64,000 nucleotides of DNA from Candidatus Bathyarchaeota archaeon (GCA_018396775.1 JAGTRF010000004.1:16214-80213); one strand, 5' to 3'; counted from the first letter of the stretch, positions 49,032-64,000 are shown. Notes: generated by a model from the sequence alone, not told the origin. Made by a program: numbers and translations.

Positions 49032-50171
49032 TTAAATCCCAAAATTCTTTTTTATAATTGATTCATATATTAAAAGAGTTTCTTTAACAGCTTTATCCCA
49101 ATTGAAAAATTTTTCTATATGTTTTCTTCCATTTCTTCCCATTTTAATTCTTTCACCTTCATTTTCTAAAAGCCAAATTAAAGCTTCACCAAGTTTTTTT
49201 GAATTTTTAGGTGGAACAAGAATTCCTGTTTCTTTATTTTTTACTATTTCAGGTATTGCGCAATGGTTAAAAGCAACTACAGGTTTACCGCAAGCTTGAG
49301 CTTCAGCTAAAGGAAGCCCAAAACCTTCCCATAAGCTTGGAAAACAAAAAACATCGCAAGCTGCATAACATAAAGGCAACTCGTTTTCAGATGCATATCC
49401 AACAAATATTAAGGCTTGTTTAACTTTTTCATTTAAAATTTTTTCTATTCTTGGAAAATCGTATCTTGAAGCACCTACAATCATTAATTTAGCTTTAGGA
49501 ATTTGTTTTAAAACATGATTAAAAGCTTCAATAAGGAATTGGAGTCCTTTATAAGGGACTAATCTTCCAACAAATAGCACTATTGAATCTTGAATTTTAA
49601 ATTTCTCTTTTATAATGGAGCCATTAATGTTTGGATTAAATTTTTGTATATCTACCCCATTATAAACTACATGAATTTTTGATGAATCAATAAAATATTT
49701 TTTCTTTAATTCATTTTTAAGAAATTTACTTACAGTTATTATTTTATCAATTTTATTTCCTCTTAAAGAAAAAAATGTTCCTAAATTATGATCTATCATT
49801 TTAATTTTTTGTTTTGGGTTTACCCAGTATTTTATAGGTGCAAAACCATGATATGTAAATACATGAGGCGATTTATAAAAGGTTTTTAAATAATTTCCAA
49901 CGAAGATATCAGGGTGATATTGAGTGTGAATTAAATCAAAATTTTTAATTTTTCCGCAAGCAATCATAAATGTGAAATGTCTAATAAATGGAATATTCTC
50001 TAAAGAAGTTTTAACTTTAATTACTGGAATATTATTTAATTTAACTTCAGAAAACCTTGTAAAAATAAATACTTCATGACCAAGCTTTATCATTCTTTTA
50101 GCTAATTCTTTTATATGATTTGTTTGTCCAGAACCTGCGAGAAGAGAGCTTCTAACTATGGCGATTTTCAT
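49032..50171 (-). CDS. glycosyltransferase family 4 (GT-B, retaining)
   Basis: KIAIV...AGSGQTNHIKELAKRMIKLGHEV N-terminus; C-terminal EGFGLPLAEAQACGKPVVA (E-x7-E motif). Confidence 0.7.
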   Translation of the reverse strand: MKIAIVRSSLLAGSGQTNHIKELAKRMIKLGHEVFIFTRFSEVKLNNIPVIKVKTSLENIPFIRHFTFMIACGKIKNFDLIHTQYHPDIFVGNYLKTFYKSPHVFTYHGFAPIKYWVNPKQKIKMIDHNLGTFFSLRGNKIDKIITVSKFLKNELKKKYFIDSSKIHVVYNGVDIQKFNPNINGSIIKEKFKIQDSIVLFVGRLVPYKGLQFLIEAFNHVLKQIPKAKLMIVGASRYDFPRIEKILNEKVKQALIFVGYASENELPLCYAACDVFCFPSLWEGFGLPLAEAQACGKPVVAFNHCAIPEIVKNKETGILVPPKNSKKLGEALIWLLENEGERIKMGRNGRKHIEKFFNWDKAVKETLLIYESIIKKNFGI

Positions 50172-50176
50172 TTTAT

Positions 50177-51391
50177 TTAATTATAAATCTTTATTAAATA
50201 AGATTTTAATTTTCTAAATGTTTCAGCCTCCTCTTTTATTTTAGCTTCAGCTTCATCATTAGATAGGCTTGAAGCTTCTTTAATAAAGAACGCTACTTTC
50301 CCAAGCCATGCTGAATAAAAAGCTTTTAAAACGCTTAAAGAATCAAATTTTTCATTTAAATAATTAACTGTTAAAGAGTAAGCTATTTTCGCCCAGTTTT
50401 CATCTTCTAAATTCAGCTTTAATAAGTTTTTTAATAGCTTTTTTTCAAGAAGCTTTTTAAGAGTTAAAAAATTTTCTTTAACTTCTTTTTTAAATCTTAT
50501 TTTTTGAGTTTTAAAGTTTAATGGTAAAGCTTCAGGTTGCGGAAAAGGAAAATTTTCTTTTATTAAAATAGGCTTTAAAGGCTTTTTGATTTTCCACCAA
50601 AAATCTTTATATCGCTTTATGCAATCAAGCATTGAACCGGCCACTTCGATAAACATATTTTTAAGATGCACGCTTGGATCTTTAGCTTCATGAAGCTTTG
50701 ATCCTAAGAAAACTTCATAAACTTTATATCCTTTAGCTATAGCTGAGTGCGTAATAAAAATATCTATACCAAAACGTTGAGTAAAATTGGTTTTCCAAAG
50801 CGGGTTTTGAAGTAAATCCTTTATTAAGCTTTTTGAAAAAGCAAAATCGCCTCCAATAGGCTGCCTTATATCACATTCATAAACGCCTTTAGTGAATGGG
50901 TAACATAAATGATTTGTAATATTGCCGTCAAATTTATCTCTAATATAAAATGGTGCAGTTAAATCTCCATTTTTATTTATAATAGAGTTGAATAAAACTT
51001 TAATCCACTCTGGTTTTACACTTCTTAAATCTGAGTCTAAAATAATTACTGAATCTGAATTAAGGTTTATAGACGCCTCCATTATAGCTTTAACAGCTGA
51101 ACCTTTCCCAGAAACCCCTTTATATTTACCTAAAATTAAGTTAATTTTGCTTGGAAGCTTAAAAGCTTTAACTACATTTAAAGTTCCATCGTTTGATCCT
51201 CCATCAGAAACAAAAATTGTAAAAGAAAAGTTTGGAAAATAATTTATAAGACCTAAAGCAGATTGATAAATTACATAATTTATAGTTGATGCACAATTGT
51301 AAGATGGTATACCTATTAAAAGATTAGTTTGTTTAATTTTATTAAGTTGTTTCTCCAAATTTTTAGTTAATGAAGATTTAATAACATTCAT
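50177..51391 (-). CDS. GT-A fold glycosyltransferase (GT2/GT81-like, glycosyl-3-phosphoglycerate-synthase-like)
   Basis: LIGIPSYNCASTI...VSDGGSNDGT...SGKGSAVKAIMEA...ILDSDL (DxD). Confidence 0.6.
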   Translation of the reverse strand: MNVIKSSLTKNLEKQLNKIKQTNLLIGIPSYNCASTINYVIYQSALGLINYFPNFSFTIFVSDGGSNDGTLNVVKAFKLPSKINLILGKYKGVSGKGSAVKAIMEASINLNSDSVIILDSDLRSVKPEWIKVLFNSIINKNGDLTAPFYIRDKFDGNITNHLCYPFTKGVYECDIRQPIGGDFAFSKSLIKDLLQNPLWKTNFTQRFGIDIFITHSAIAKGYKVYEVFLGSKLHEAKDPSVHLKNMFIEVAGSMLDCIKRYKDFWWKIKKPLKPILIKENFPFPQPEALPLNFKTQKIRFKKEVKENFLTLKKLLEKKLLKNLLKLNLEDENWAKIAYSLTVNYLNEKFDSLSVLKAFYSAWLGKVAFFIKEASSLSNDEAEAKIKEEAETFRKLKSYLIKIYN

Positions 51392-52812
51392 ATTTTTACT
51401 ACACCATTTTTGCTTAAAAGCTCAAGAGTGTAAGCAACCGCTTTTCTTCTTAAAAAGTTTTGAAATTTTTGTCCTTCTAAAGTTTTTGTTAAATTTATCC
51501 ATGGAGACGTTTTCTTCACAGGTTTAACTCCGTGATTTAGCATAGTTAATTCTTTACGTAAAATTTCAGAATATTGAGATACTCTTTCTTTATCGCCTTT
51601 AATATCTTTATAAAATGTTCGTTTAACTTTATGGTTAACTTCAGTTTTCACTTCAGCTTTATCATATAAACTCTGAGAAGCCTCAATAATTTTATAAGCT
51701 TCTTGAAGATATTCCTTAACAATTTCTTCTTTATTAATTTTATAATCTTTAAATTCATACAAAATAAGGGAAGTTATTTCTTTAACCATTTCCCTCATTG
51801 CTTCTTCGTTTCGAGGAAAATGCTGAAACAAACTTAAATCTACTTCAACAATTTTATCAAGCATTTTTCTTTTCCATAATTCAATTAAAATACCTGCTTC
51901 TACGCTGTAATTCGCTGGAAAACTTAATGACTCTATAAGGCTTTTTTTTCCAGCATACTCTCCTGAAAGCGGATACTTAAGCTTATCTAAATCCGCTAAA
52001 ACTCCTTTTTTACTTAAAACTTTTAATAAAGGAATTAAAAATAACCGTGTAACTCTTCCCCCAATTTTATAGAAACCTTTTTCTGGAGCATCTATATTTA
52101 TGGATAACCTTGTGTAATAAGCTTTAGTTAATTCAACCTTAATTTTTTCATCTTTAAATGTTTTTAAAAGAGGTTTAATTAAAGAGGCTATTTGCCATTC
52201 CTCAAGATTTTTTATATCACTATCTAAAAAAACTATTATATCACCTGATGAAATTCCAACCCCAAGCCAAAGGGCTGCACCTTTACCAGCAGGAAAGGCT
52301 TCAGGTAAAATATTTAATTGTTTTATAATCGTGTTTACTTGAGAATCCAATTGATGAATTACTTTAAATACAAAATCATAAAGGCCTAGCTTAGCTTTAT
52401 CTTTTAAAGCTGGAAACTTATTTAACATATTTACTTGATCATGAAAGAGAGTCATTTTTCTATAAGCTGATAACACTAAACGCTTTACTAAAGATTCATC
52501 AATCTCCATTTTTTTAGTTCTGCTTCCATCAACAATAATTACTTCATCAATTAATCCTTTAGACAAAAGTTGATCAAGAATAATTAATTCATTCCTTATA
52601 ACTTCATATCTATAACCATAAAGGTCTTCTGGTGTTGTTAGAAAGGTTGGAATTACAACTGAAATATTTATTGGGCGGATAAAATTATATTCATCTTTTA
52701 TAAGAGTTGAGCGCTTAAGTTTTAAAGCTTCTTCAGTAACGCTTAACCGTTTTCTATAAGCAATTTTCTCTATAAACCTATAAAAGCTTTTTTTAAAAAG
52801 TTTCACATTCAA
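51388..52812 (-). CDS. GT-A fold glycosyltransferase, glucosyl/mannosyl-3-phosphoglycerate-synthase-like (GT81/GT55-like), with C-terminal extension
   Basis: ISVVIPTF...IIVDGS...PAGKGAALWLGVGISSGDIIVFLDSDI is the pattern of GpgS-type retaining synthases. Confidence 0.55.
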   Translation of the reverse strand: MNVKLFKKSFYRFIEKIAYRKRLSVTEEALKLKRSTLIKDEYNFIRPINISVVIPTFLTTPEDLYGYRYEVIRNELIILDQLLSKGLIDEVIIVDGSRTKKMEIDESLVKRLVLSAYRKMTLFHDQVNMLNKFPALKDKAKLGLYDFVFKVIHQLDSQVNTIIKQLNILPEAFPAGKGAALWLGVGISSGDIIVFLDSDIKNLEEWQIASLIKPLLKTFKDEKIKVELTKAYYTRLSINIDAPEKGFYKIGGRVTRLFLIPLLKVLSKKGVLADLDKLKYPLSGEYAGKKSLIESLSFPANYSVEAGILIELWKRKMLDKIVEVDLSLFQHFPRNEEAMREMVKEITSLILYEFKDYKINKEEIVKEYLQEAYKIIEASQSLYDKAEVKTEVNHKVKRTFYKDIKGDKERVSQYSEILRKELTMLNHGVKPVKKTSPWINLTKTLEGQKFQNFLRRKAVAYTLELLSKNGVVKI

Positions 52813-52984
52813 TTTACCACTAGTAAATTAAACTTTTATAAAATAAAAATGTAATGTTCGAATCAAAAGAAATAAGTTCTTTTATTAAATTTCGCTTTAA
52901 AAATTCTATATTATTAATTAATATTTAATAAAACATGGAGATTTCCTTTTTATTAAATGAAGTTAAAGTAAAAAGGTGATAAAA

Positions 52985-54247
52985 ATGAAGAGAATTGGAA
53001 TTGTTCATTATACTGCTCCAGAAAAAGAAGTTGGAGGAGTAGAAGTAGTTATAGATGCGCATGCACGTCACTTAAGTAAGAGAGGATTTGAAGTTTACTT
53101 GATTTATGGTAAAGGTGGAGGGTTGAATTATGAAAATTTAGTTGAGTATGAAGCGCCTTTGCTTTCACCTACGCATCCTTTAATAGAGAAAGTTCAAAGC
53201 GAAATTTTAAAAGAACAAAAAGAAACTTTAAATTTTAAAGAATTAAAAAACAATATTAAAGAAGAGTTATTTAAATTAATTTCTAAATTAAATGTTTGCA
53301 TAATTCATAATATTCCATCTATGCATTTTAATTTTGCAGTTACAGCGGCTATAAACGAGTTGGTTGATGAATTAAAAAAAGTTAAGTTTATTTTTTGGCT
53401 TCATGATAGCATATTGTTTAGAAGCGAATTTAAAAATGAAGTTGAAAGTTTTCCATTTACTCTTTTACATTATAAAAATCCTAAAGTAATTTATGTTACT
53501 CCAACAAGAGTTAGAGCAAACCAGTTTGCGCAATTACCTGAAAAATATAAAATTCAAGAAATTCATGTTATTTCAAATGGAGTTGATGTAGAAGAATATG
53601 TTAAAATAGATGAGGTTACAAAGCTGCTTATGAAAAAGCTTGGTTTATCTTTTGAAGATTATATTCTAGTTACTCCAGTGCGGGTTACACCGAGAAAAAA
53701 CATAGAGCTGGCAATTTTTGTAGTTGATGAATTAAAGCATTTAATGGGTTTATCGAAAATTGTTAAGCTTTTGATAACTGGGCCTCCAGATCATCAAGCG
53801 CGAAAAATGGGAATAGCATATTGGGATTATCTTCAAGAGTTAATTGCAAAAAGAAATCTTCAAGAAAACATAATTTTCTGTCATAATATTATTGCTCAAA
53901 GAAGAGAATATGAAAATGGAGAGATAAAAAAATGGAGTGTTGCAGATGTTTATAATGTAGCTGATTTAATTTTTATTCCAAGCAAAGAGGAAGGTTTTGG
54001 GTTACCTGTAATAGAGGCGGGCGCCTCTAGAAAACCAATATTTTGCTCTAGAATTCCACCCTTTCAAGAGCTTATAAGAGACGATATAGAAGGTTATATG
54101 TTTGATTTAAATGATGATCCGAAAAGCATAGCGTTTAGAATCTATAGGGAATTTTTAACAGATAAAGTGGAAACAAACTTTAATAATGTTATAAAAAGGT
54201 TTAGCTGGGATAATATAATAGAAAAAAAGATTATTCCCATTCTTTAA
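52985..54247 (+). CDS. glycosyltransferase family 4 (ORF track starts at GTG 52976; ATG 52985 has a GGTG ribosome-binding site 8 nt upstream)
   Basis: RIGIVHYTAPEKEVGGVEVVIDAHARHLSKRGFEV...EGFGLPVIEAGASRKPIFCS. Confidence 0.65.
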   Translation: MKRIGIVHYTAPEKEVGGVEVVIDAHARHLSKRGFEVYLIYGKGGGLNYENLVEYEAPLLSPTHPLIEKVQSEILKEQKETLNFKELKNNIKEELFKLISKLNVCIIHNIPSMHFNFAVTAAINELVDELKKVKFIFWLHDSILFRSEFKNEVESFPFTLLHYKNPKVIYVTPTRVRANQFAQLPEKYKIQEIHVISNGVDVEEYVKIDEVTKLLMKKLGLSFEDYILVTPVRVTPRKNIELAIFVVDELKHLMGLSKIVKLLITGPPDHQARKMGIAYWDYLQELIAKRNLQENIIFCHNIIAQRREYENGEIKKWSVADVYNVADLIFIPSKEEGFGLPVIEAGASRKPIFCSRIPPFQELIRDDIEGYMFDLNDDPKSIAFRIYREFLTDKVETNFNNVIKRFSWDNIIEKKIIPIL

Positions 54248-54926
54248 AAAAACGGTTAAAAACTAAGCTTTCTTCAAGAAACTTTATTGCTTCTTGAAAA
54301 CTTGAAACTATTTTATGAGCTTTCTCTTTTAACGCTAAACTTTTAGGTTTATAAGCTATAGCGATATTCGCTCCTGTAAAAGCGCATAAATCTGGGTCGC
54401 TGTCGCCTATGCAAATGGAAACACCATTAAAAAAGCGTTTAAGTTTATTTAAATACCATAGCTTACATACAGCAAATTCTCTGCATCCTTGAATCTTCAT
54501 GCAATGCTGTTTAGTTAAAACTTTACCTGTAGCCCTATCTCTTTTAAACTCAAGAATGTTTCCATAAACTTTATTTATACCAAGTCTTTTAGCCAGGTTT
54601 TCTCCAAGAAATTGAAAAGAATCTGTTGCAATAGCTACGATAAATCCTTGATTTTTAAGGTAATTTATAAATTGCTCTGCATTAGGTTCCAGGGGTATTG
54701 AAGAGAAAATTTCTTCAAGTTCCCTTTTTCTTTTACCAGCTAAAAGTTTAGCTATTTGCTCAGTTACCTTATATGCAGGAACTTTTAAAGCCCATTTATT
54801 TATTTCTTTAAGCTCTTGAGTAAAACCTAGTGTGGAGCATAAAACATCGATAGATCGTTTTGATAAAATTGTTCCATCCATATCTATAATAGCCACGCCT
54901 GTTAAATTATTCATTTCCATAATCAT
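54231..54926 (-). CDS. HAD-superfamily phosphatase (phosphoserine-phosphatase-like subfamily IB)
   Basis: Motif I IIDMDGTIL; motif II IATDS; motif III/IV K...GDSDPD. Confidence 0.7.
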   Translation of the reverse strand: MIMEMNNLTGVAIIDMDGTILSKRSIDVLCSTLGFTQELKEINKWALKVPAYKVTEQIAKLLAGKRKRELEEIFSSIPLEPNAEQFINYLKNQGFIVAIATDSFQFLGENLAKRLGINKVYGNILEFKRDRATGKVLTKQHCMKIQGCREFAVCKLWYLNKLKRFFNGVSICIGDSDPDLCAFTGANIAIAYKPKSLALKEKAHKIVSSFQEAIKFLEESLVFNRFFKEWE

Positions 54927-54985
54927 ATTTAAGTGGTAAAGCTTAAATATAAATTTAGATTATGAATAAAAGTAGGGGGAAATTG

Positions 54986-55717
54986 ATGAGTTTTATTCCA
55001 GAATTATGGGTTAAATTTATTGATTCAATAGTTGAGCTTCTTCCTAAAATTGCTGGTGCAATAATTGTATTAATTATAGGGTGGGTTTCTGGAAGAGCGT
55101 TTGGAAAATTAGCCTTAAAAATTACTGAAAAAACTGGTGTGAGCAAAGTTTTAAGAAAAACAATTGTTGGAAGAGCTTTAGAAAGCTCAGGTGTTACTAT
55201 GAGCAAATTCTTCGACATTCTCATTAGATGGTTTATATACTTAATCGCAATTTTAGCAGCTGTAGATATTTTAAAAATAGAGGCTTTAAGCAAAATTATA
55301 GGGTTAATTGTTCAGTATCTTCCAAGCTTTTTAGCTGGAATAGTAATCTTGCTTGCTGGTTTAGTTATCGCTGATTTTATTGGTGATGCTGTAGCAGCTA
55401 TTGGAAGAGAAGCGAAAATAGAGTTTGCAGGTTTTCTATCAATTATAACAAGATCAGTATTATATTTTGTTGTAATAATAATAGCTTTAACTGTAATGAA
55501 GATCGACGTATCTCTTTTATACATGTTTGCTAATGCTTTAGCTTGGGGAATAGCAATTGGCGTTGGAGCAGCATTAGGAATAGCGTTAGGTTTAGGGCTT
55601 AAAGATTACGTTTCTAAAAACGCTGAAAAATGGTTGAAAGGATTCGCAGAAACAACTAAAAAAACTGAAGATTTTTGGAGTTGGTATACTAGAAGAGAAA
55701 AAGAAGAATCTCAGTAA
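54986..55717 (+). CDS. membrane protein with tandem conserved-TM-helix repeats (MscS N-terminal-like)
   Basis: Internal repeat LPKIAGAIIVLIIGWVSGRAFGK / LPSFLAGIVILLAGLVIADFIGD. AGGGGG ribosome-binding site 8 nt upstream of ATG 54986 (ORF track starts at 54962). Confidence 0.55.
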   Translation: MSFIPELWVKFIDSIVELLPKIAGAIIVLIIGWVSGRAFGKLALKITEKTGVSKVLRKTIVGRALESSGVTMSKFFDILIRWFIYLIAILAAVDILKIEALSKIIGLIVQYLPSFLAGIVILLAGLVIADFIGDAVAAIGREAKIEFAGFLSIITRSVLYFVVIIIALTVMKIDVSLLYMFANALAWGIAIGVGAALGIALGLGLKDYVSKNAEKWLKGFAETTKKTEDFWSWYTRREKEESQ

Positions 55718-55864: not shown

Positions 55865-56905
55865 TTGAAGATAAAATTGGTTAAATTAAAGGCTAGAGAA
55901 GGCGATTTTCTTTTAACAATAGATAAACTCTTCTTTGATGTTAAAGGCTATTTACATCCCCCTGATCGAATAATAAGCTTTATTCGTTATTATCCAAGCA
56001 AAAGAGGAGAAAGAATCGTTAATAAAGAAAAATACGCGAAAATTTACGAGTTAAAAAAAAGATTTAAATTTCTTAAGAAAAAATATCCAATTTACATTTA
56101 TTATGATGGCGTTTTCCACTCTATAATACAGGGCGTTCCAATAAATATGGTTAAGAAGCTTTATAATCCTAAAGAAAAAGTTAAGGAATTAATGAAAAAC
56201 AACAAATTTAAAGTTGAAAGTGAAGCATTAAATTTAATTCAAGCTTTAGGTAAAGAAGCTAATCAAGAAATAAATAGATTCGGGGTTACAGGCTCAATTT
56301 TAGTAAATTTATTTACAAATGATTCAGATTTAGATGTGATTGTTTATGGATTTAAAGCAGCTGTTAAAGTTTATGAAGCTTTAAGAAAGTTAATTCAAGA
56401 AAGAAAAGAGTTTAAACCATGCGATAAAAAAGAATTATATAAAATTTATTTAGCTAGAGGAATGAATAAAGCTTTAAGCTTTAAAGATTTTTATGAAAAT
56501 GAGAAGAACAAGATTCTTCAAGGAAAATTTCATGAAAAAAACTATTTCATAAGATGCGTTAAAGACTGGAATGAAGTAAAAGAAGCTTATGGAGATGAAA
56601 TCTATTATCCAATTGGATTAAGCAAAATTAAAGCTATAGTGATTAATAACGAAGAAAGCATTTTAACACCTTGTAAATATGAAGTTTCTAATATTAAAGT
56701 TTTATCTGGAAGAAAAGCATTAATAAAGGAGATCGTATCTTTTAGAGGAAGATTCTGTGAGGCAGCTTCTATTGGAGATAAAATAATTGCTAGAGGCAAG
56801 CTTGAGAAAGTAATAAATGCGAAAGACAATAGTGAATTTCACCGTTTAATTTTAGGAGAAAACTCTAAAGACTTCCTAATTGTTAAGGAGAAAAGTAAAA
56901 CTTGA
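55865..56905 (+). CDS. uncharacterised protein with central pol-beta-type nucleotidyltransferase motif (paralogue A of three)
   Basis: N-terminal FFDVKGYLHPPDRIISFIRYYPSK; core NRFGVTGSILVNLFTNDSDLDVIVYG (hG[GS]-x9-13-DhD); C-terminal ESILTPCKYEV...EIVSFRGRF...GKLEKV...FHRLILG. TTG start; overlaps paralogue B by 4 nt. Confidence 0.6.
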   Translation: MKIKLVKLKAREGDFLLTIDKLFFDVKGYLHPPDRIISFIRYYPSKRGERIVNKEKYAKIYELKKRFKFLKKKYPIYIYYDGVFHSIIQGVPINMVKKLYNPKEKVKELMKNNKFKVESEALNLIQALGKEANQEINRFGVTGSILVNLFTNDSDLDVIVYGFKAAVKVYEALRKLIQERKEFKPCDKKELYKIYLARGMNKALSFKDFYENEKNKILQGKFHEKNYFIRCVKDWNEVKEAYGDEIYYPIGLSKIKAIVINNEESILTPCKYEVSNIKVLSGRKALIKEIVSFRGRFCEAASIGDKIIARGKLEKVINAKDNSEFHRLILGENSKDFLIVKEKSKT

Positions 56906-57933
56906 GAAGATTTAGAGATAGAGATTATATTAAAACTTTTGATGAGTTATATTTTACAGTTTTAGGAAATACACATCCAAAAGATAAAGTTATAGCTTAT
57001 TTAAAATATGCGCCATCGAAAAAAGGTATTTGGGGTAAATATCCTCACCTTTATGATAGACCAATTAAGGAATATACGATTCATAACATTAAAAAAATGA
57101 TGAATTTCTTAAAAAAGAATTACCCGCATTATATTCATAAAATTTTTAATATAGATTTCTCAGCTGTACCATGCGAAAGCATAATGACTCATTATAAACC
57201 TGAAGAAAAACTTCAACAATTAATAAAATTAAATGTTAAAGATGAGCTCCAAAAGAAAGTTGTTGAGTTAGCTTTAACTTTATCTAAAGAGAGTAAAGTA
57301 GAGATTAAAGATTTTGGGGTAACAGGTTCTATACTAATTGATTTACATAAATTGAATTTTTCTGATATAGATTTGACAGTTTATGGAAAAGAAAACAGTT
57401 TAGCTGTTAAAAAAGCTTTAAAGAACATTTACTCTAAAGAAGGTGAAATTCAAAAGTTTTCTATTAAAGATTTTGAAGAATGGTATAAAATAAAAGGACG
57501 CCTTTACCCATTAACGCTTAAAGAAGCTTTAACTCTTTTTGAGAAAGCTTGGAATAAAGGAAAATTTAAAGAAACACCTTTTTCAATTCACCCTATTAAA
57601 ATTGAAAGCGAGATTAAAGAAGATTACTATAAAAGACAGTATTTTCCAATATCTTTAGTTGCAGGTAAAGCAAAAATTATTGATGCAAGCGAATCAATTT
57701 TTATGCCTGGGAAATACAAAGTTGAATGCAAATTAAAGAGAGAAGTGAAAGTAAATGAAATTGTAACTTTCGAAGGGTTTTATGCTGGAGTAGCTGAAGA
57801 AGGAGAAGAAATTTTATTTAAAGGAAAATTAGAAAAAGTGGAAGATAAAAACAAAAATGAAAGTTACTTTAGAATCGTTGTAGGTTCGCTTGAAGCTAAA
57901 GGAGAAGATTACATAAAGATTGTTAAGGATTAG
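56902..57933 (+). CDS. uncharacterised pol-beta-type nucleotidyltransferase-motif protein (paralogue B)
   Basis: YFTVLGNTHPKDKVIAYLKYAPSK; KDFGVTGSILIDLHKLNFSDIDLTVYG; ESIFMPGKYKV...EIVTFEGFY...GKLEKV...YFRIVVG. Confidence 0.6.
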   Translation: MRRFRDRDYIKTFDELYFTVLGNTHPKDKVIAYLKYAPSKKGIWGKYPHLYDRPIKEYTIHNIKKMMNFLKKNYPHYIHKIFNIDFSAVPCESIMTHYKPEEKLQQLIKLNVKDELQKKVVELALTLSKESKVEIKDFGVTGSILIDLHKLNFSDIDLTVYGKENSLAVKKALKNIYSKEGEIQKFSIKDFEEWYKIKGRLYPLTLKEALTLFEKAWNKGKFKETPFSIHPIKIESEIKEDYYKRQYFPISLVAGKAKIIDASESIFMPGKYKVECKLKREVKVNEIVTFEGFYAGVAEEGEEILFKGKLEKVEDKNKNESYFRIVVGSLEAKGEDYIKIVKD

Positions 57934-58831
57934 ATTCTAAAGCTTCTTTTAAGTTTATTTGAATAGGGCCCAATTTTCCACCAAAGTTAACTGCACTTAT
58001 TTTTTTAACTCCTTTAACCTGAGCTGCAGCTTTAATTCCAGCAGCGGTAGCTTTCTTTACAATTTTTGTTGTAACACCATTAAACACTATTTCGTAAACG
58101 CTGTTAACGCCTTCAGGAACTTTACTATCTTCAATTAAGCTTTTTAAAGCTGGACAGTAAGGATGATTTGTTGAAGCTGGAAGCTTATATTTTCTAGCAC
58201 CAACCTTAGATCCGGACCTGCATATTCCACCTGGAAAAGGAAGAATTACACCCTCAATCTTTTGAATAGCTTCAACAGCTTTTTCAGCAGCTTCTAAAGC
58301 AGCCTTCCTATTTTCAGCCATTATAAGAAAATTTCCTCCAGCTGCACATCTTCTAACCCCAAACCTATCTTCTATAATAAATTCGCCCTCCATCACTGGA
58401 ATTCTCCAAATTTTTCTTTCAGCTAAAACATCACTTTTTTCAAACCCATCTCCAAACAGTTTAATTGCTCTACCCACCTTCAATCTTTTTTTAGCTAAAG
58501 GCATAGCATCAAAAGCAGCTGTGGTTGGGCAAGTTAATACGCATTGACCTAACCTGCTTATCAATTGAAGCTTTAAAGCGCTTCCAAACCTATGGTAAAC
58601 TTGAATATAAACTCCCGGCCTGTTATCTGGAGTTTCATTTGGTGAAGCTATAGGCCCTTCAAACCCTGCTTCAGCTGGAGACATAATTATAGATGAAGCG
58701 AAGCCTGTAGCGGTTTTAGCAGCTGTTAAAGCCCACTTCTCGTTTTCAGCTGTAATTAAAACTCTTGAAGCCCACATTGGAAAAGCTTCAGCAAAATCAT
58801 TATCATCAATCTCCACTTCCCCAATTTTCAT
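57923..58831 (-). CDS. ftr: formylmethanofuran:tetrahydromethanopterin N-formyltransferase
   Basis: MKIGEVEIDDNDFAEAFPMWASRVLITAENEKWALTAAKTATGFASSIIMSPAEAGFE...; 302 aa, collinear with Ftr proteins. Confidence 0.85.
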   Translation of the reverse strand: MKIGEVEIDDNDFAEAFPMWASRVLITAENEKWALTAAKTATGFASSIIMSPAEAGFEGPIASPNETPDNRPGVYIQVYHRFGSALKLQLISRLGQCVLTCPTTAAFDAMPLAKKRLKVGRAIKLFGDGFEKSDVLAERKIWRIPVMEGEFIIEDRFGVRRCAAGGNFLIMAENRKAALEAAEKAVEAIQKIEGVILPFPGGICRSGSKVGARKYKLPASTNHPYCPALKSLIEDSKVPEGVNSVYEIVFNGVTTKIVKKATAAGIKAAAQVKGVKKISAVNFGGKLGPIQINLKEALESNP

Positions 58832-58881
58832 TTAAATCACCTTAACCCTTTTAATTATTCTTTAATTCTAAATTTAAAATT

Positions 58882-59940
58882 TTAGCTAATTGTTTTAAGG
58901 GTTTGCTCATAATATCTTTTACCATAAGTTAAAACAAGCTGGTAAAGCTTTTCTCTATTACTTAATTTAACAAGCTCTAGATTTCCCTCTGCATAAATTT
59001 TATCTCCCTCTTTAGCTTGCATTCTAAATTCTTCAATATAGGAAACTATAGCGTCAATTCTAGAAACTTTAAAACCTTTAATTTCTTTAGCTTCAATCCA
59101 ATAAATAGAAGGCATAAAAATTGATTCCGACTCATTAATAACTTTTCCAATAACTGATACCCATCCCAACTTCTTAATTTTTAAAGGGTAAATCTGTTGA
59201 TTAACAATTTCTTTATCGCTTTTAACAGGTTCAAACTCTACTTTTATTTTTCTATTAAAGCTTTTATCAATTAAAACACCGTAAACTAATTTTCTTTTTT
59301 GATGGGCGAAAAACTCTTTTAAGGAAAGCTTTTTAAATCTCCACTTTTCTTTAAATGGTAAAACTTCAAATTCATTAGCCATAAAGCTTTTTTCATTATA
59401 AAATTCTTTTAACACATCTTTTAACTCAAGCAACTGTTTCCTACCATAAATGATGAAATCTAAATCAGAGTAGCTTGGATGATAAAAATCATGAAGAATT
59501 GAACCGAAAACTCCAAAATCATTAATTGAAAGTTTTGAGCGATTTAAAATTTCTGAAATAACTTTGAAAAGAGCCCTTATTAATTCATTATTTTTCTCGC
59601 TGTAAAAAACAGTTTTTAATTTTTCTTCAGGAAACTTAATTTGAGAAATCTGGTTTTTCTTTAAACCAATTAAGTTAAATTTTAAATGTGGGTGCTTCAC
59701 TTTATATTGAGGAAACTTCTTTTCAATAAATAATATTCCTTCATGCTCATAAAATTTGTAATATTTTTCGCCTTGAAACCCCTCTCTAAAAGCTTTAGAG
59801 TTTTTAGAATTAAATATTTTTAAAGGCGCGTATTCAGCGTCGCAAATAAAACCATTCACTGGATGCGTATACCCTAAAACCCTAAATATTATTCCCTCTT
59901 TAGAAGTTAACGCATCTCTATCTTTAATAATATTTCTCAT
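58882..59940 (-). CDS. uncharacterised pol-beta-type nucleotidyltransferase-motif protein (paralogue C, opposite strand)
   Basis: IFRVLGYTHPVNGFICDAEYAPLK; NDFGVFGSILHDFYHPSYSDLDFIIYG; ESIFMPSIYWI...AIVSYIEEF...GNLELV...YQLVLTYG. Confidence 0.6.
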   Translation of the reverse strand: MRNIIKDRDALTSKEGIIFRVLGYTHPVNGFICDAEYAPLKIFNSKNSKAFREGFQGEKYYKFYEHEGILFIEKKFPQYKVKHPHLKFNLIGLKKNQISQIKFPEEKLKTVFYSEKNNELIRALFKVISEILNRSKLSINDFGVFGSILHDFYHPSYSDLDFIIYGRKQLLELKDVLKEFYNEKSFMANEFEVLPFKEKWRFKKLSLKEFFAHQKRKLVYGVLIDKSFNRKIKVEFEPVKSDKEIVNQQIYPLKIKKLGWVSVIGKVINESESIFMPSIYWIEAKEIKGFKVSRIDAIVSYIEEFRMQAKEGDKIYAEGNLELVKLSNREKLYQLVLTYGKRYYEQTLKTIS

Positions 59941-60028
59941 TATTAACTCAACCTAAACGCTTAAATACTTTTAAACTTGATTTAAAATTATTTTTGATTT
60001 TTAAAAGATTTAATTATTTAAAAAAAAG

Positions 60029-60871
60029 GTGATTTTAGTTTTGGCAGTTAAAATTGGGTTTATAAAGCTTGGAAATATAGGTTCAGCGCCTTTAATAGAG
60101 TTTCTTTTAGATGAAAGAGCTGAAAGAGAAGATTTAAATGTAAGAGTTGTAAGCTCAGGCGCGAAATTAACTGTTGAAGAAGCAGCTGAAGCAGCTGAAA
60201 AACTTCTTGAATTTAAACCTGATTTAGCTATTGTGGTTAGCCCAAACGCTTCTTTACCTGGACCTGAAAAGGCTAGAGAAATTCTTAGCAAAGCAGGGAT
60301 TCCAGTTTTAGTTGTTTCAGATGGCCCAGCTAAAAAAGCTGTAAAAAAGCTTGAGGAAGGGGGTTTTGGATATTTAATAATTGAAGGTGATCCAATGATT
60401 GGTGCTAGAAGAGAATTTTTAGATCCAATAGAAATGGCTTTATTTAATGCTGAAGTTATCAAGGTTTTAGCCGGGTCAGGAGTTTTCAATATTTTATTTG
60501 CTGAAATCGATAAAATTATAGAAAGCTTAAAAAAGAGAGAAAAGCCTCAGCTTCCAAAAAGAATTATTGATAGCGAAGCAGCTGTTGAAGCTGCTGAATT
60601 TCAAAATCCATATGCTAAAGCTAAAGCTCAAGCAGCTTATGAAGCTGCTAAAAAAGTTGCTGAAATAAATGTTCAAGCTTGCTTTATAATTAAAGATTGG
60701 CAAAAATACACAACTTTAGCTGCTTCAGCTCATGAATTAATTAGGGAAGCTGCTAAATTAATTGATGCAGCTAGAGAAATAGAGAAAACAAGCGATTCAG
60801 TAATTAGGCATCCGCATTATGATGATGGAAAAATTTTATCTAAAAGGCGTTTAATAGAAAAGCCTAGGTGA
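60029..60871 (+). CDS. mtd: F420-dependent methylene-tetrahydromethanopterin dehydrogenase
   Basis: VKIGFIKLGNIGSAPLIEFLLDERAEREDLNVRVVSSGAKL...VSPNASLPGPEKAREILSKAGIPVLVVSDGPA...GDPMIGARREFLDP is collinear with Mtd. Confidence 0.85.
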   Translation: MILVLAVKIGFIKLGNIGSAPLIEFLLDERAEREDLNVRVVSSGAKLTVEEAAEAAEKLLEFKPDLAIVVSPNASLPGPEKAREILSKAGIPVLVVSDGPAKKAVKKLEEGGFGYLIIEGDPMIGARREFLDPIEMALFNAEVIKVLAGSGVFNILFAEIDKIIESLKKREKPQLPKRIIDSEAAVEAAEFQNPYAKAKAQAAYEAAKKVAEINVQACFIIKDWQKYTTLAASAHELIREAAKLIDAAREIEKTSDSVIRHPHYDDGKILSKRRLIEKPR

Positions 60872-60881
60872 AACTTTAGCG

Positions 60882-61271
60882 ATGAAAGTTAAGCTTATAA
60901 CTGGAAGAAGCTTGCAGCAAGGCGTAGGGAAGGAAACTGGAAAATTTTCTATAGAATATTTTAATAATGTAGCCATATGCGAGCTTGATCCAAGCGATAT
61001 GGAAACCTTAAATATATCGCCAGGAGAAAACGTTGTGGTGAAAACAAAATTCGGCGAAGTTATTTTAAAAGCTGTTAAATCTATGCAAGCTCCTCATAAA
61101 GGTGTAATTTTTATTCCTTACGGTCCCTGGGCTAATTTAGTTACGGATCCTGAAACTCATGGAAGCGGAATGCCAAATTTTAAAGGAATTGAAGCTGAAG
61201 TTTCTCCAGCAAAAGAGGAAAAAATCTTAACTTTAAAAGAAGTTTTAGAAAAAATTTCTGGAGGAAAATGA
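60882..61271 (+). CDS. fwdD: formylmethanofuran dehydrogenase subunit D (molybdopterin dinucleotide-binding domain)
   Basis: MKVKLITGRSLQQG...PYGPWANLV...; 129 aa. Confidence 0.8.
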   Translation: MKVKLITGRSLQQGVGKETGKFSIEYFNNVAICELDPSDMETLNISPGENVVVKTKFGEVILKAVKSMQAPHKGVIFIPYGPWANLVTDPETHGSGMPNFKGIEAEVSPAKEEKILTLKEVLEKISGGK

Positions 61272-62578
61272 ATTTAATGGAAAAAACAATTTATAATGCT
61301 GTTTGCACAATTTGCGGGTGCTGCTGCGATGATTTAGAAGTTAAAGTTGGAGATGGAAAAATAGTTGAGGTTAAAAACGCCTGCGCTATTTCATTAAGTA
61401 AATTTCAAAATTATAATAGTGAAGAAAGAATTATTAAACCAATGATTAAAAAGAATGGGGAATTTAAAGAATGCAGCTTTAAAGAAGCTGCTGAAAAAGC
61501 TTCGATGATTCTTGCTGAAGCTGAATACCCCTTAATTTATGGGTTAAGTTTAACAAGCACAGAGGCTATAGGTAAAGCTGTAGAGTTGGCTGAAGTTTTA
61601 GGAGGCGTTATAGATAATACAACATCTGTTTGTCATGGCCCAAGTTTAATAGGGGTTCATGATATAGGTGTGGTAACATGCACTTTAGGAGAAATTAAAA
61701 ATAGAGCTGATTTAATAATTTATTGGGCTTCAAATCCTGTTTTCAGTCATCCAAGGCATTTAGCTAGATATACAATTTTTAGTAAAGGAAAATTTAGGAA
61801 GGAAAGAAAAGAAAGAAAGCTTATAGTGGTAGATGTTAGAAAAACAGCTACGGCTAAACTAGCTGATATATTTATTCAAGCTATTCCAAACCAAGATTAT
61901 GAATTGCTTTCAGCTTTAAGAATGGCTGTTAAAGGAGAAGAAATTTATTTGGATGAAGTGGCTGGTGTTCCCGTAAACAAAATTGAAGAATTAGCTGATT
62001 TAATGATAAGCTGCGAGTTTGGAGTATTGTTTTTTGGTTTAGGATTAACAATGTCTCTTGGAAAAAGTAGAAATATAGATGCCGCCTTATCTTTGGTTAG
62101 AGATTTAAATGAAAAAACAAAATTTTTAATAATGCCTATGAGAGGCCATTATAATGTAACAGGTGCAAATGAAGTTATAGCTTGGCAAACAGGTTATCCA
62201 TTTGCAGTAGATTTTAGCCAAGGTTACCCAAAGTATAATCCTGGAGAAACAACAACAATAGAGCTTTTAACTAGAGGGGAATGTGATGCAGCTTTAATAA
62301 TAGGTTCAGATCCAGCAGCTCACTTTCCAGTTTCAGCAGTAAAGCATTTAATGAAAATCCCAGTAATAACAATTGATCCTCATAAAAATGCTACAACATT
62401 AATTTCAAATGTTGTTATTCCAACAGCTATAACAGGTATTGAAGTCGAAGGGACAGTTTATAGAATGGACGGGGTTCCATTAGAGTGTAAAAAGCTTGTT
62501 GAACCCCCCTTAGGCTTAAAATCTGATGAGGAAATTTTAACTGAAATCTTAGCGAATGTTAAAAAACTGAAAGGGTAA
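61268..62578 (+). CDS. fwdB: formylmethanofuran dehydrogenase subunit B (Cys-type, not Sec)
   Basis: N-terminal CTICGCCCDD Fe-S motif; the active-site region TSVCHGPS has Cys with no in-frame TGA. Confidence 0.8.
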   Translation: MNLMEKTIYNAVCTICGCCCDDLEVKVGDGKIVEVKNACAISLSKFQNYNSEERIIKPMIKKNGEFKECSFKEAAEKASMILAEAEYPLIYGLSLTSTEAIGKAVELAEVLGGVIDNTTSVCHGPSLIGVHDIGVVTCTLGEIKNRADLIIYWASNPVFSHPRHLARYTIFSKGKFRKERKERKLIVVDVRKTATAKLADIFIQAIPNQDYELLSALRMAVKGEEIYLDEVAGVPVNKIEELADLMISCEFGVLFFGLGLTMSLGKSRNIDAALSLVRDLNEKTKFLIMPMRGHYNVTGANEVIAWQTGYPFAVDFSQGYPKYNPGETTTIELLTRGECDAALIIGSDPAAHFPVSAVKHLMKIPVITIDPHKNATTLISNVVIPTAITGIEVEGTVYRMDGVPLECKKLVEPPLGLKSDEEILTEILANVKKLKG

Positions 62579-62590
62579 GGCGGTTTCGAG

Positions 62591-64000
62591 ATGAGTGAAA
62601 TTTTAATTAAAAACGGCTTTGTTTTCGATCCATTAAACAATATAAATGGAGAAAAAATAGATATAGCTGTTAAAGATGGAAAAATAGTTGAGAAAGTAAG
62701 TTCTAAAGCAAAAGTTATTGATGCCTCTGATATGATTGTTATGCCAGGTGGAGTAGATATTCATTCGCATATAGCTGGGTCAAAAGTTAATGCTGGAAGA
62801 GTTTTAAGACCAGAAGATCATGTTAAAGATTTTGAAGTTAAAACTAAAATTACTAGATCTGGAGTTGGATATTCAGTCCCCTCAACCTTTACCACAGGCT
62901 ATAGATATGCAAAAATGGGTTATACTACTGTTTTTGAACCTGCAACTCCACCCTTAAAAACTAGGCACACTCATGAAGAATTAAGAGATATACCAATTAT
63001 TGATAAGGGTTGTTTCCCTCTTTTAGGAAATAACTGGTTTATAATGGAGTATTTAAAAGAAGAGAAGCTTGAAGAATGTGCTGCTTATATAAGTTGGCTT
63101 CTTAATGCAGTTAAAGGTTACGCTATAAAAATAGTTAATCCAGGCGGAACTGAAGCTTGGGGTTGGGGAAGAGAAATAGCTTATTTAGATGAGGAAATCC
63201 CATATTTTAATGTAACGCCTAAAGAGATTGTAAGATGGCTTTGCAAAATAAATAATATTTTAAATTTACCTCATCCAATTCATGTTCATACAAATAACCT
63301 TGGGAAACCTGGAAACTATGTTACTACTATAGAAACTATGGATGCTGTTAAAGACTTATCTAAAGATGGAGAAGTTTCCATTCATGTTACTCACGTGCAA
63401 TTTAATGGATTTGCTGGTACCTCATGGTTAAATCTTGCTTCAGGAGCATCTGAAATAGCAGATTATATAAATAAAAACACTCATGTTGAAATCGACGTGG
63501 GACAAATAACTTTTGCCGATACAACAACAATGACTGCTGATGGCCCATTTCAATACATCCTTTATCTTTTATCAAGAGAAAAATGGGTTAATGCTGATGT
63601 TGAAGCTGAAACTGGTGCTGGAATAGTTCCATTTAGATATAAAAAATCTAACTATGTAAATGCCATTCAATGGGGTATTGGTTTAGAATTAGCTTTGCTA
63701 ATAAAAGATCCGTGGAAAATCCATATGACTACAGATCATCCGAATGGTGGCCCATTCACGCATTACCCGAAAGTTATAGCTTGGTTAATGAGCGGAAAGG
63801 CAAGAGAGAAAACTATAAATAAAATCAACAAAAACGCTAAAAGAAGACTTGATTTACCCGGCATCGATAGAGAGTATACGCTTTATGAAATAGCAATAAT
63901 AACTAGAGCAGCTACAGCTAAATCTTTAGGTTTAAAAAATAAAGGGCATTTAGGTGTTGGGGCTGATGCAGACATAGCAATATATGATTTAAACTATAAA
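62591..64000 (+). CDS. fwdA: formylmethanofuran dehydrogenase subunit A (amidohydrolase), 3' end beyond the window
   Basis: MSEILIKNGFVFDPLNNINGEKIDIAVKDGKIVEKV...MPGGVDIHSHIAG metal-binding amidohydrolase motif; reading frame stays open to position 64000. Confidence 0.8.
   Translation, partial: MSEILIKNGFVFDPLNNINGEKIDIAVKDGKIVEKVSSKAKVIDASDMIVMPGGVDIHSHIAGSKVNAGRVLRPEDHVKDFEVKTKITRSGVGYSVPSTFTTGYRYAKMGYTTVFEPATPPLKTRHTHEELRDIPIIDKGCFPLLGNNWFIMEYLKEEKLEECAAYISWLLNAVKGYAIKIVNPGGTEAWGWGREIAYLDEEIPYFNVTPKEIVRWLCKINNILNLPHPIHVHTNNLGKPGNYVTTIETMDAVKDLSKDGEVSIHVTHVQFNGFAGTSWLNLASGASEIADYINKNTHVEIDVGQITFADTTTMTADGPFQYILYLLSREKWVNADVEAETGAGIVPFRYKKSNYVNAIQWGIGLELALLIKDPWKIHMTTDHPNGGPFTHYPKVIAWLMSGKAREKTINKINKNAKRRLDLPGIDREYTLYEIAIITRAATAKSLGLKNKGHLGVGADADIAIYDLNYK

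Follow-up and report, generated by a model that had tools for sequence, protein, structure and literature searches.

What is the role of three related nucleotidyltransferase-like proteins encoded beside ftr, the gene for formylmethanofuran:tetrahydromethanopterin (H4MPT) formyltransferase, in an archaeal genome? The question is raised by a stretch of 64,000 nucleotides from Candidatus Bathyarchaeota archaeon (GCA_018396775.1 JAGTRF010000004.1:16214-80213), referred to as a whole as the window, in which an earlier reading made without database searches (the sequence-only reading) had noticed three divergent paralogues, A, B and C, bracketing ftr. Our analysis indicates that A, B and C are probably subunits of uncharacterised pol-beta-fold transferases that act in the biosynthesis of a tetrahydromethanopterin-type C1 carrier. 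We favour this assignment because the G-S/D-x-D catalytic motifs are intact, because the genes are paired, and because members of the family are embedded in, and fused with, H4MPT-biosynthesis genes in several archaeal phyla and in bacteria.

The three open reading frames (ORFs) were found at the coordinates and on the strands given by the sequence-only reading, with A on the plus strand at 55865..56905 (346 aa), B on the plus strand at 56902..57933 (343 aa) and C on the minus strand at 58882..59940 (352 aa). C starts with ATG and both A and B with TTG, the start of A being ambiguous between the TTG at 55865 and another in-frame TTG at 55877. Full-length BLASTP comparisons gave identities of 35% between A and B (4e-54), 30% between A and C (7e-27) and 29% between B and C (6e-30). 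These are genuine full-length paralogues, with a similarity far beyond chance, and their identity is low as had been claimed, lying slightly above the roughly 25-30% first estimated. B is 100% identical to KEJ50_02730 of NCBI ("hypothetical protein" [Candidatus Bathyarchaeota archaeon]), and C is identical to KEJ50_02740, also a "hypothetical protein", from a Candidatus Bathyarchaeota metagenome-assembled genome (MAG).

All three paralogues consist of an N-terminal domain, a pol-beta nucleotidyltransferase core and a C-terminal OB fold, which bears out the three-module architecture around a minimal core first proposed from motifs. In B, the N-terminal domain (56902..57237, plus strand; residues 1-112) comprises a small beta-barrel and an alpha/beta part and contains the invariant residues D8, F18, G22, H25, P26, Y77 and P100. 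The core (57238..57621, plus strand; about residues 113-240) carries the catalytic motif, with G142-S143 at 57325-57330 and D155-x-D157 at 57364-57372, and the OB-fold domain (57622..57930, plus strand; about residues 241-343) has conserved F267, P269, Y272, G308 and E311. According to an AlphaFold2 model of B (predicted local distance difference test, pLDDT, 93.4; predicted template modelling score, pTM, 0.90), the N-terminal module begins with a small SH3-like barrel; no close structural match to this domain was found. In an alignment of 51 homologues, D8, F18, H25, P26, Y77, P100, G139, G142, S143, S154, D155, D157, P269, Y272, G308 and E311 were invariant. The G-S and D-x-D motifs and E237 are retained in all four subfamilies described below, and E237 is a candidate for the third catalytic carboxylate; on the strand before it, positions 228 and 230 vary by subfamily. 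Among the motifs listed by the sequence-only reading, all three copies contain F-x-V-x-G-[YN]-x-HP and the GS...SD[IL]D core (FGVTGS...SDLDV in A), the latter with a spacer of 7-8 residues where 8-10 had been given. The C-terminal motifs are also real, with copy C deviating in two of them (ESIFMPSIY and AIVSY).

Database searches assigned these proteins to a superfamily and to nothing narrower. The family belongs to the pol-beta-like nucleotidyltransferase superfamily (Pfam NTP_transf_2 / Polbeta): its proteins show a profile match, the alpha/beta core fold and the hG[GS] motif, with [DE]h[DE]h on the strand after it. In Pfam, the only matches were weak ones to NTP_transf_2 at residues ~130-185 (E ~1e-4). 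NCBIfam yielded no match for B or C and one insignificant match for A (NF002332, MdcG-like, E 0.29), the PDB yielded no significant sequence match in either single-sequence or profile searches, and PADLOC yielded only a generic match to the nucleotidyltransferase core of copy C (E 4.5e-4). When the paralogues, the 51 homologues and the four subfamilies were searched against Pfam, NCBIfam and PADLOC, the generic core alone was again recognised, and no family in Pfam, NCBIfam or the PDB spans the whole protein. Weak matches to DUF7932 in 5 of the 51 B homologues (best 2.3e-5) were not relocated in 30 homologues scanned singly, and this candidate was dropped. The earlier statement that no characterised or housekeeping family claims these ORFs thus held in the Pfam, NCBIfam and PDB searches, and we regard A, B and C as a new, uncharacterised family inside a known superfamily. 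A search of literature full text, from whose coverage key J. Bacteriol. papers on methylotroph H4MPT are absent, found no description of the family.

The family is moderately large: a profile search against 1.84 billion representatives retrieved 538 clusters at E<1e-30 and 1105 at E<1e-10. By a great majority, the named members are from Bathyarchaeia. Other archaeal members come from Odin-, Baldr-, Freya-, Jord- and Helarchaeota, Methanomethylicia, Nezhaarchaeota and Geothermarchaeales, and further ones from some Nitrososphaerota-labelled MAGs, one Aenigmatarchaeota-labelled MAG and an Acidobacteria-labelled clade. Their source annotations read "hypothetical protein", "predicted nucleotidyltransferase" or "nucleotidyltransferase domain-containing protein". 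To compare genomic loci, we used 80 loci on one-genome-per-species contigs, in which ORFs were called and clustered within flanks of up to 10 kb. A set of 176 full-length members, including those of the window, fell into four subfamilies, B (81), A (50), D (24) and C (21). Paralogue A shares a mean identity of 42% with the A subfamily versus 30% with the B subfamily, and paralogue C shares 44% with the C subfamily versus 22-25% with the others.

The members of these subfamilies occur mainly in two kinds of pairs. By locus, the content was AB in 43, BCD in 14, B alone in 8, ABCD in 5, BD in 5 and ABC in 1, this last being a close relative of the window (L001); B is found in every locus because the loci were retrieved by B-like patterns, an ascertainment effect. 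In 28 loci A precedes B co-directionally, the median distance between them being ~10 nt; the two are convergent with overlapping ends in 14, and D is followed co-directionally by C in 19. The A+B pair is widespread, and the D+C pair is found in Bathyarchaeia; the genome of Ca. Bathyarchaeum tardum (L059), for example, has B, C and D. A and C have one indel and R44/K53/F294 in common, and B and D have W44/R53/Y58/Y294. Each pair thus contains one subunit of each of two old types, a pattern that heteromers would show, and the functional unit is most likely one A/C-type plus one B/D-type subunit, here A+B, with C as an additional A/C-type subunit. In the window, A and B overlap by 4 nt where the one ends and the other begins (cTTGAg), with a GGAG ~12 nt upstream, a layout from which the two genes are probably translationally coupled. 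A search of the whole window recovered no D-type copy. What the sequence-only reading took for a triplication is therefore better described as four old subfamilies occurring in pairs (A+B and D+C), with the window holding an A+B pair plus an orphan C whose usual D partner is missing.

The D+C genes form a co-directional pair of their own at L042:3721-7968 and in 13 similar Bathyarchaeia loci (e.g., L017, L026, L061, L065, L070 and L074). In most of these loci they adjoin genes for a CPBP-like membrane protease and for an Asn-synthase-like PP-loop protein that bears a zinc ribbon at its C-terminus; genes for creatininase-family proteins and iron-sulfur flavoproteins are sometimes present too. 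This set may represent an extra cofactor modification specific to Bathyarchaeia; the C of the window stands without it, the partner set having been lost.

We then analysed which genes accompany the family in the archaeal loci. An H4MPT-related gene lay within 8 kb in 68 of the 80 loci, and 7 of the 12 exceptions were contigs shorter than 10 kb. The most frequent neighbour families were Ftr (40 loci), the CitG family (33; PF01874, 1.8e-68), DmrX (15; TIGR02700, 2.7e-86), DUF1464 (11), an F420-ligase-like protein and the Asn-synthase-like PP-loop protein (10 each), the RFAP synthase MptG and an MptH-like dihydropteroate-synthase-like protein (9 each), and MptE, MptA and DUF447 (8 each), and fwdD, fwdB and mtd were recurrent as well. 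Within 100 nt of a family gene, ftr was found in 31 loci and a CitG-family gene in 19. Linkage to ftr, mtd or fwd was kept in 44 of the 80 loci, so the C1 neighbourhood that had been noticed in the window is conserved in other genomes, contrary to the absence that the sequence-only reading had set as a refuting result; the convergent B/ftr layout recurs in related loci, and the pair is followed by fwdD-fwdB in L044, L048 and L079, as is a B-type copy at the contig edge in L018. At least one of DmrX, MptA, MptE, MptG and MptH was present in 18 loci. Four Jord-/Freyarchaeial loci (L069, L056, L067 and L076) have the order MptG-DUF1464-DmrX-MptH-MptA-NTA-NTB on one strand with gaps of at most 75 nt, where NTA and NTB denote the A- and B-type genes. 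In three Bathyarchaeia loci (L004, L008 and L015) the order is NTB> <NTA <CitG <DUF447 MptE> DmrX> <DUF1464 <MptG <MptH. A Methanomethylicia locus (L068) has DmrX, MptE, MptA, DUF447 and CitG upstream of NTA and NTB, and the arrangements CitG-NTB-NTA and CitG-NTA-NTB are seen in L002 and L006, respectively. These results indicate that the linkage to H4MPT biosynthesis is a stronger signal than the linkage to ftr, mtd and fwd.

Several less frequent neighbours were also observed in these clusters. A family of ~250-aa multi-pass membrane proteins, without a match in Pfam or NCBIfam, is encoded directly upstream of the A-type gene in 18 loci, often between the CitG-like gene and A (L007:64-810, L009:6039-6785 and L063:6166-6936), and could be a transporter of a cofactor precursor; the membrane protein encoded upstream of A in the window (54962..55717) is unrelated to it and is kept only in L001. 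An adenine deaminase gene recognised by Pfam lies between the CitG-like and DUF447 genes at L019:3715-5499, and an ORF of matching size and position occurs in L032; its presence in the cluster would fit a release of adenine from ATP by the CitG-like enzyme. Divergently beside the B-type gene at L004:5810-7354, and also in L005, L008, L010 and L015, is a gene for a protein of the AMP-phosphorylase/thymidine-phosphorylase family (Glycos_transf_3 and PYNP_C domains with a CDC48_N-like N-terminus), an alternative candidate for a ribosyl-phosphate transfer step. A UbiX-like flavoprotein (PF02441, 1.5e-51) is encoded between the B-type gene and ftr at L013:3626-4183, its family being present in 6 loci; ORFs of similar size occupy this position in L016 and L027, and FMN_red and Flavin_Reduct proteins recur in the clusters. 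These flavin-related proteins may be linked to unassigned reductive steps of the H4MPT pathway.

Bacterial members extend this association with pterin genes. In the protein P0249 (505 aa), HPPK (PF01288, 3e-40) is joined to an A-type nucleotidyltransferase, and the same fusion was found in at least 17 clusters (P0249 and P0391-P0406; 56-79% identity) on bacterial-looking contigs. The fusion gene is followed by genes for a DmrB/AfpA-like flavoprotein and an MptH-like protein (e.g., L081:5626-7143), and its carriers seem to use a bacterial HPPK together with downstream H4MPT genes of archaeal type. There is also a large clade of unfused A-type proteins, including one from a MAG labelled Acidobacteria, whose genes adjoin that of a DmrB/AfpA-like flavoprotein; within a few kb of them lie genes for MptH-like, DUF447, MptG-like, Mpt_N (methylene-H4MPT dehydrogenase), ATP-grasp and FhcA/FwdA-like proteins. 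The family thus clusters or is fused with characterised mpt/dmr genes in distant lineages. Among the functions that the sequence-only reading had put forward, H4MPT cofactor biosynthesis is favoured by the mpt operons, the CitG-family neighbours and the HPPK fusion, while the methanofuran, F420, RNA and protein alternatives gained no support. The NMP-transfer activation of a head group suggested there is a guess.

A distant full-length homologue (hhalign probability 99.6%, E 6e-25) was detected on 21 Streptomyces plasmids, in a conserved cassette that encodes a histidine phosphatase, a 384-aa protein without a Pfam match, an APH-family kinase and the nucleotidyltransferase homologue (e.g., L088:5261-9038 in NZ_CP108855.1 and L089:5226-9002 in NZ_CP109318.1). 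The cassette had no PADLOC matches. To our knowledge, Streptomyces lack H4MPT, and the homologue suggests a more general action of the fold on phosphorylated small molecules.

Which step of the pathway could such an enzyme catalyse? The tail of methanopterin consists of ribitol-(5'->1'')-alpha-ribofuranosyl-5''-phosphate esterified to 2-hydroxyglutarate, and we know of no genes assigned to the ribosyl-phosphate and hydroxyglutarate steps of White's pathway. In prosthetic-group biosynthesis, CitG and MdcB use ATP to form a 5-triphospho-alpha-ribosyl adduct with release of adenine, and CitX and MdcG transfer this adduct to a hydroxyl. In enzymes of the nucleotidyltransferase fold, a hydroxyl attacks the alpha-phosphate of a ribose-5'-triphosphate to give a phosphodiester, with loss of pyrophosphate (PPi). 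By analogy, we tentatively suggest that the family forms the hydroxyglutarate phosphodiester from a CitG-made triphosphoribosyl intermediate. The neighbouring CitG-family enzyme would use ATP to place a 5-triphospho-alpha-ribosyl group on the ribitol of a pterin-aminophenyl-ribitol intermediate, releasing adenine. The nucleotidyltransferase pair would then handle this ribosyl triphosphate as a nucleoside triphosphate, and the 2-hydroxyl of (S)-2-hydroxyglutarate would attack the alpha-phosphate to yield PPi and the phosphodiester of the methanopterin tail. The OB fold and N-terminal domain would hold the aromatic pterin/aminophenyl part. The ribosyl-phosphate-hydroxyglutarate unit would thus be made from ATP in two steps, rather than by the route from phosphoribosyl pyrophosphate (PRPP) plus ATP that was reportedly proposed from cell-extract work. 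A doubtful extension of the proposal is that A+B is the missing enzyme finishing the methanopterin side chain in a CitG/CitX-like module, the CitG-like enzyme and a nucleotidyltransferase-OB heterodimer having been recruited from prosthetic-group chemistry to cofactor tail assembly, and that D+C with the Asn-synthase-like gene would carry out a further modification of the tail. For methanopterin biosynthesis, an "estimated 7 unknown proteins" has been given (Kaster et al. 2011, PMC3087415).

The comparison with CitG/CitX and MdcB/MdcG shows both likeness and difference. As in those systems, in which citX and citG of E. coli are adjacent and overlapping, the CitG-family gene here lies directly beside the transferase genes in the 19 loci counted above. 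The proposed chemistry is of the same type, a hydroxyl acting on the alpha-phosphate of a 5-triphosphoribosyl adduct with release of PPi, and the alpha-glycosidic ribosyl link made by CitG matches the alpha-ribofuranosyl link of methanopterin. However, CitX/MdcG systems include genes for acyl carrier protein and citrate lyase or malonate decarboxylase, none of which is among the 25 commonest neighbour families here. The present family is ~345 aa long, with extra N-terminal and OB domains and heterologous pairs, its proposed acceptor is a small hydroxy acid instead of the serine of a protein, and the CitG-like neighbour scores far under the CitG/MdcB equivalog cut-offs (48 vs 282 bits). The family stands outside CitX/MdcG, although it may work like them. 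A CitG-family gene, annotated as triphosphoribosyl-dephospho-CoA synthase, is also part of a methanotroph H4MPT island, that of Methylomonas DH-1, where it comes after mch and alpha-L-glutamate ligase, in that order (PMC11533326).

A parallel exists in F420 biosynthesis as well. CofC and CofD solve the same problem, joining an alpha-hydroxy acid to a ribityl or ribosyl tail via a phosphodiester with nucleotide-type activation. In contrast to our family, CofC has a MobA-like fold and CofD is unrelated, with no similarity found to either, and the F420-ligase-like neighbour is a relative of CofE, neither CofC nor CofD.

Several observations weigh against the assignment to H4MPT biosynthesis or to the tail step. 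Because the 80 loci were drawn by means of B-like peptide patterns and Bathyarchaeia dominate among them, the neighbour counts are phylogenetically non-independent. The window itself contains no CitG gene and no mpt biosynthesis gene along its 64 kb, and only C1 enzymes adjoin the paralogues. Bacterial loci have one family copy each and no CitG gene within 10 kb, and fusion to HPPK speaks for a place at the pterin-coupling end and not at the tail. Homology to CitX was sought by aligning the 51-sequence alignment against E. coli CitX with hhalign, which gave a probability of 0.1%; Pfam CitX/MdcG had no match at E<=5, and the insignificant NF002332 match of copy A was the sole MdcG-like signal. 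The OB fold is of a type that usually binds nucleic acids, and apart from K/R at position 53, no basic residue is conserved throughout the four subfamilies. Among the named matches listed (the best 80-150), there was no euryarchaeal methanogen or classical methylotroph, and from these matches and the lack of a Pfam or NCBIfam model, the family may be absent from both groups, and so from the organisms that served to work out the pathway. The occurrence of a homologue in Streptomyces implies, moreover, that the chemistry of the fold is generic.

The main rival explanation keeps the pathway and changes the step: the family would nucleotidylate another hydroxyl of an H4MPT precursor near pterin coupling, which we judge unlikely. 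One candidate reaction would O-adenylylate the phenol of 4-(beta-D-ribofuranosyl)hydroxybenzene 5'-phosphate, so that an amine could take its place in White's phenol-to-aniline conversion; another would activate a pterin or ribityl intermediate that MptH uses. The fusion of an A-type copy to HPPK followed by MptH-like and DmrB-like genes, the bacteria without a nearby CitG gene and the APH-type kinase and phosphatase beside the Streptomyces homologue are all consistent with such a step. Pol-beta nucleotidyltransferases are known to adenylylate small-molecule hydroxyls in the aminoglycoside and lincosamide nucleotidyltransferases. These enzymes, including kanamycin nucleotidyltransferase, have the same minimal core (G-S and D-x-D) and a likely small-molecule substrate in common with our family, and the Streptomyces homologue resembles them in lying in a cassette with an APH-family kinase; they differ in accessory domains and context, the archaeal loci having no resistance context. 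On the other hand, the CitG-family gene is the commonest biosynthetic neighbour in archaea and is often immediately adjacent. ATP/aspartate-dependent replacement of oxygen is, moreover, more typical of PP-loop enzymes such as argininosuccinate synthetase, and an Asn-synthase-like PP-loop gene is itself recurrent in 10 loci. Beyond this pathway, it is highly improbable that the proteins act on nucleic acid, as an RNA/tRNA 3'-end or base-modifying nucleotidyltransferase whose OB fold binds single-stranded RNA or DNA and whose C1 neighbourhood is incidental. The structural similarity to GLD2/TENT2, TUT4, CutA and the CCA-adding enzyme is confined to the core of about 100-110 residues. Unlike RNA-specific nucleotidyltransferases, the family has neither a PAP-associated nor a neck/body/tail domain and no RNA-related gene context, and no Pfam matches to the PolyA_pol head, the neck/body/tail or the PAP-associated domain were found in it. 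The sequence-only reading had named a CCA-adding-enzyme fragment as one identity that would overturn its proposal, and no such Pfam match was seen.

Still less probable, to the point of being very remote, is that the paralogues regulate Ftr or other C1 enzymes by AMPylation, or that they are generic minimal nucleotidyltransferases of toxin-antitoxin or resistance type unlinked to their neighbours. The adjacency to ftr is tight and conserved, as the 31 loci within 100 nt show, and in the window 50 nt separate C from the ftr gene, which is downstream of it on the same strand. However, ftr is convergent in almost all loci and is hence not co-transcribed with the family genes, and Asgard and bacterial members lie in biosynthetic operons without ftr. 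We also considered MNT-HEPN toxin-antitoxin or defence systems and rejected them: the proteins have ~345 aa and three domains against ~100-150 aa for MNT proteins, about three times their size, there is no HEPN neighbour family or antitoxin partner, and PADLOC shows nothing past the generic core match. The family lies outside both the CCA/PAP and the MNT-HEPN families.

Tetrahydromethanopterin is the C1 carrier of methanogenesis, of the anaerobic oxidation of alkanes and methane, of the Wood-Ljungdahl pathway in archaea and of formaldehyde oxidation in bacteria. The family is a strong candidate for a missing enzyme of the H4MPT pathway and a testable one, with the CitG-like enzyme as partner, and its members occur in lineages with genome-inferred C1 metabolism such as Bathyarchaeia, Asgard archaea, Methanomethylicia, Nezhaarchaeota and Acidobacteria-like bacteria. 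If it is truly absent from classical methanogens, either lineages would use non-homologous enzymes for the same step or the derivative of methanopterin would differ; in both cases, the use of H4MPT-pathway genes as metabolic markers in metagenomes would have to change. Should the D+C pair indeed modify the tail, Bathyarchaeia would use a new methanopterin variant. For the nucleotidyltransferase superfamily, the arrangement of a small barrel, nucleotidyltransferase and OB fold is a new domain architecture, with action on a small molecule probable.

The gene arrangement around the three paralogues in the window also agreed with the sequence-only reading. The 4-nt overlap of A and B is followed by an 11-nt overlap of B with the 3' end of the convergent ftr gene (57923..58831, minus strand; Pfam FTR/FTR_C; NCBIfam NF002554, 1.4e-121). 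C is located so that ftr lies downstream of it, and the two are possibly co-transcribed. On its other side, C is divergent from mtd with 88 nt between them, and mtd, fwdD, fwdB and a partial fwdA, all H4MPT/methanofuran C1 enzyme genes, occupy 60029..64000 on the plus strand. The identities that had been given to these C1 neighbours were reproduced by Pfam, NCBIfam, tblastn and PDB matches: mtd matches Pfam MTD (1.1e-118), fwdD and fwdB were recognised through tblastn matches to related loci, and the partial fwdA, the ORF 3' of fwdB, matches FwdA of PDB 5t5i_A (1.3e-187). Scans of the locus for bacterial promoters and terminators and against Rfam were uninformative. A 159-aa ORF antisense inside mtd (60010..60489, minus strand), whose translation is of low complexity and rich in Ser, Ala and Pro, is almost certainly a shadow ORF and no gene. 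Upstream of the locus, at 49032..54926, lie long ORFs that by eye appear glycosyltransferase-like and HAD-type phosphatase-like; this cluster is probably unrelated to the nucleotidyltransferase genes, since it is kept beside them solely in the close relative L001.

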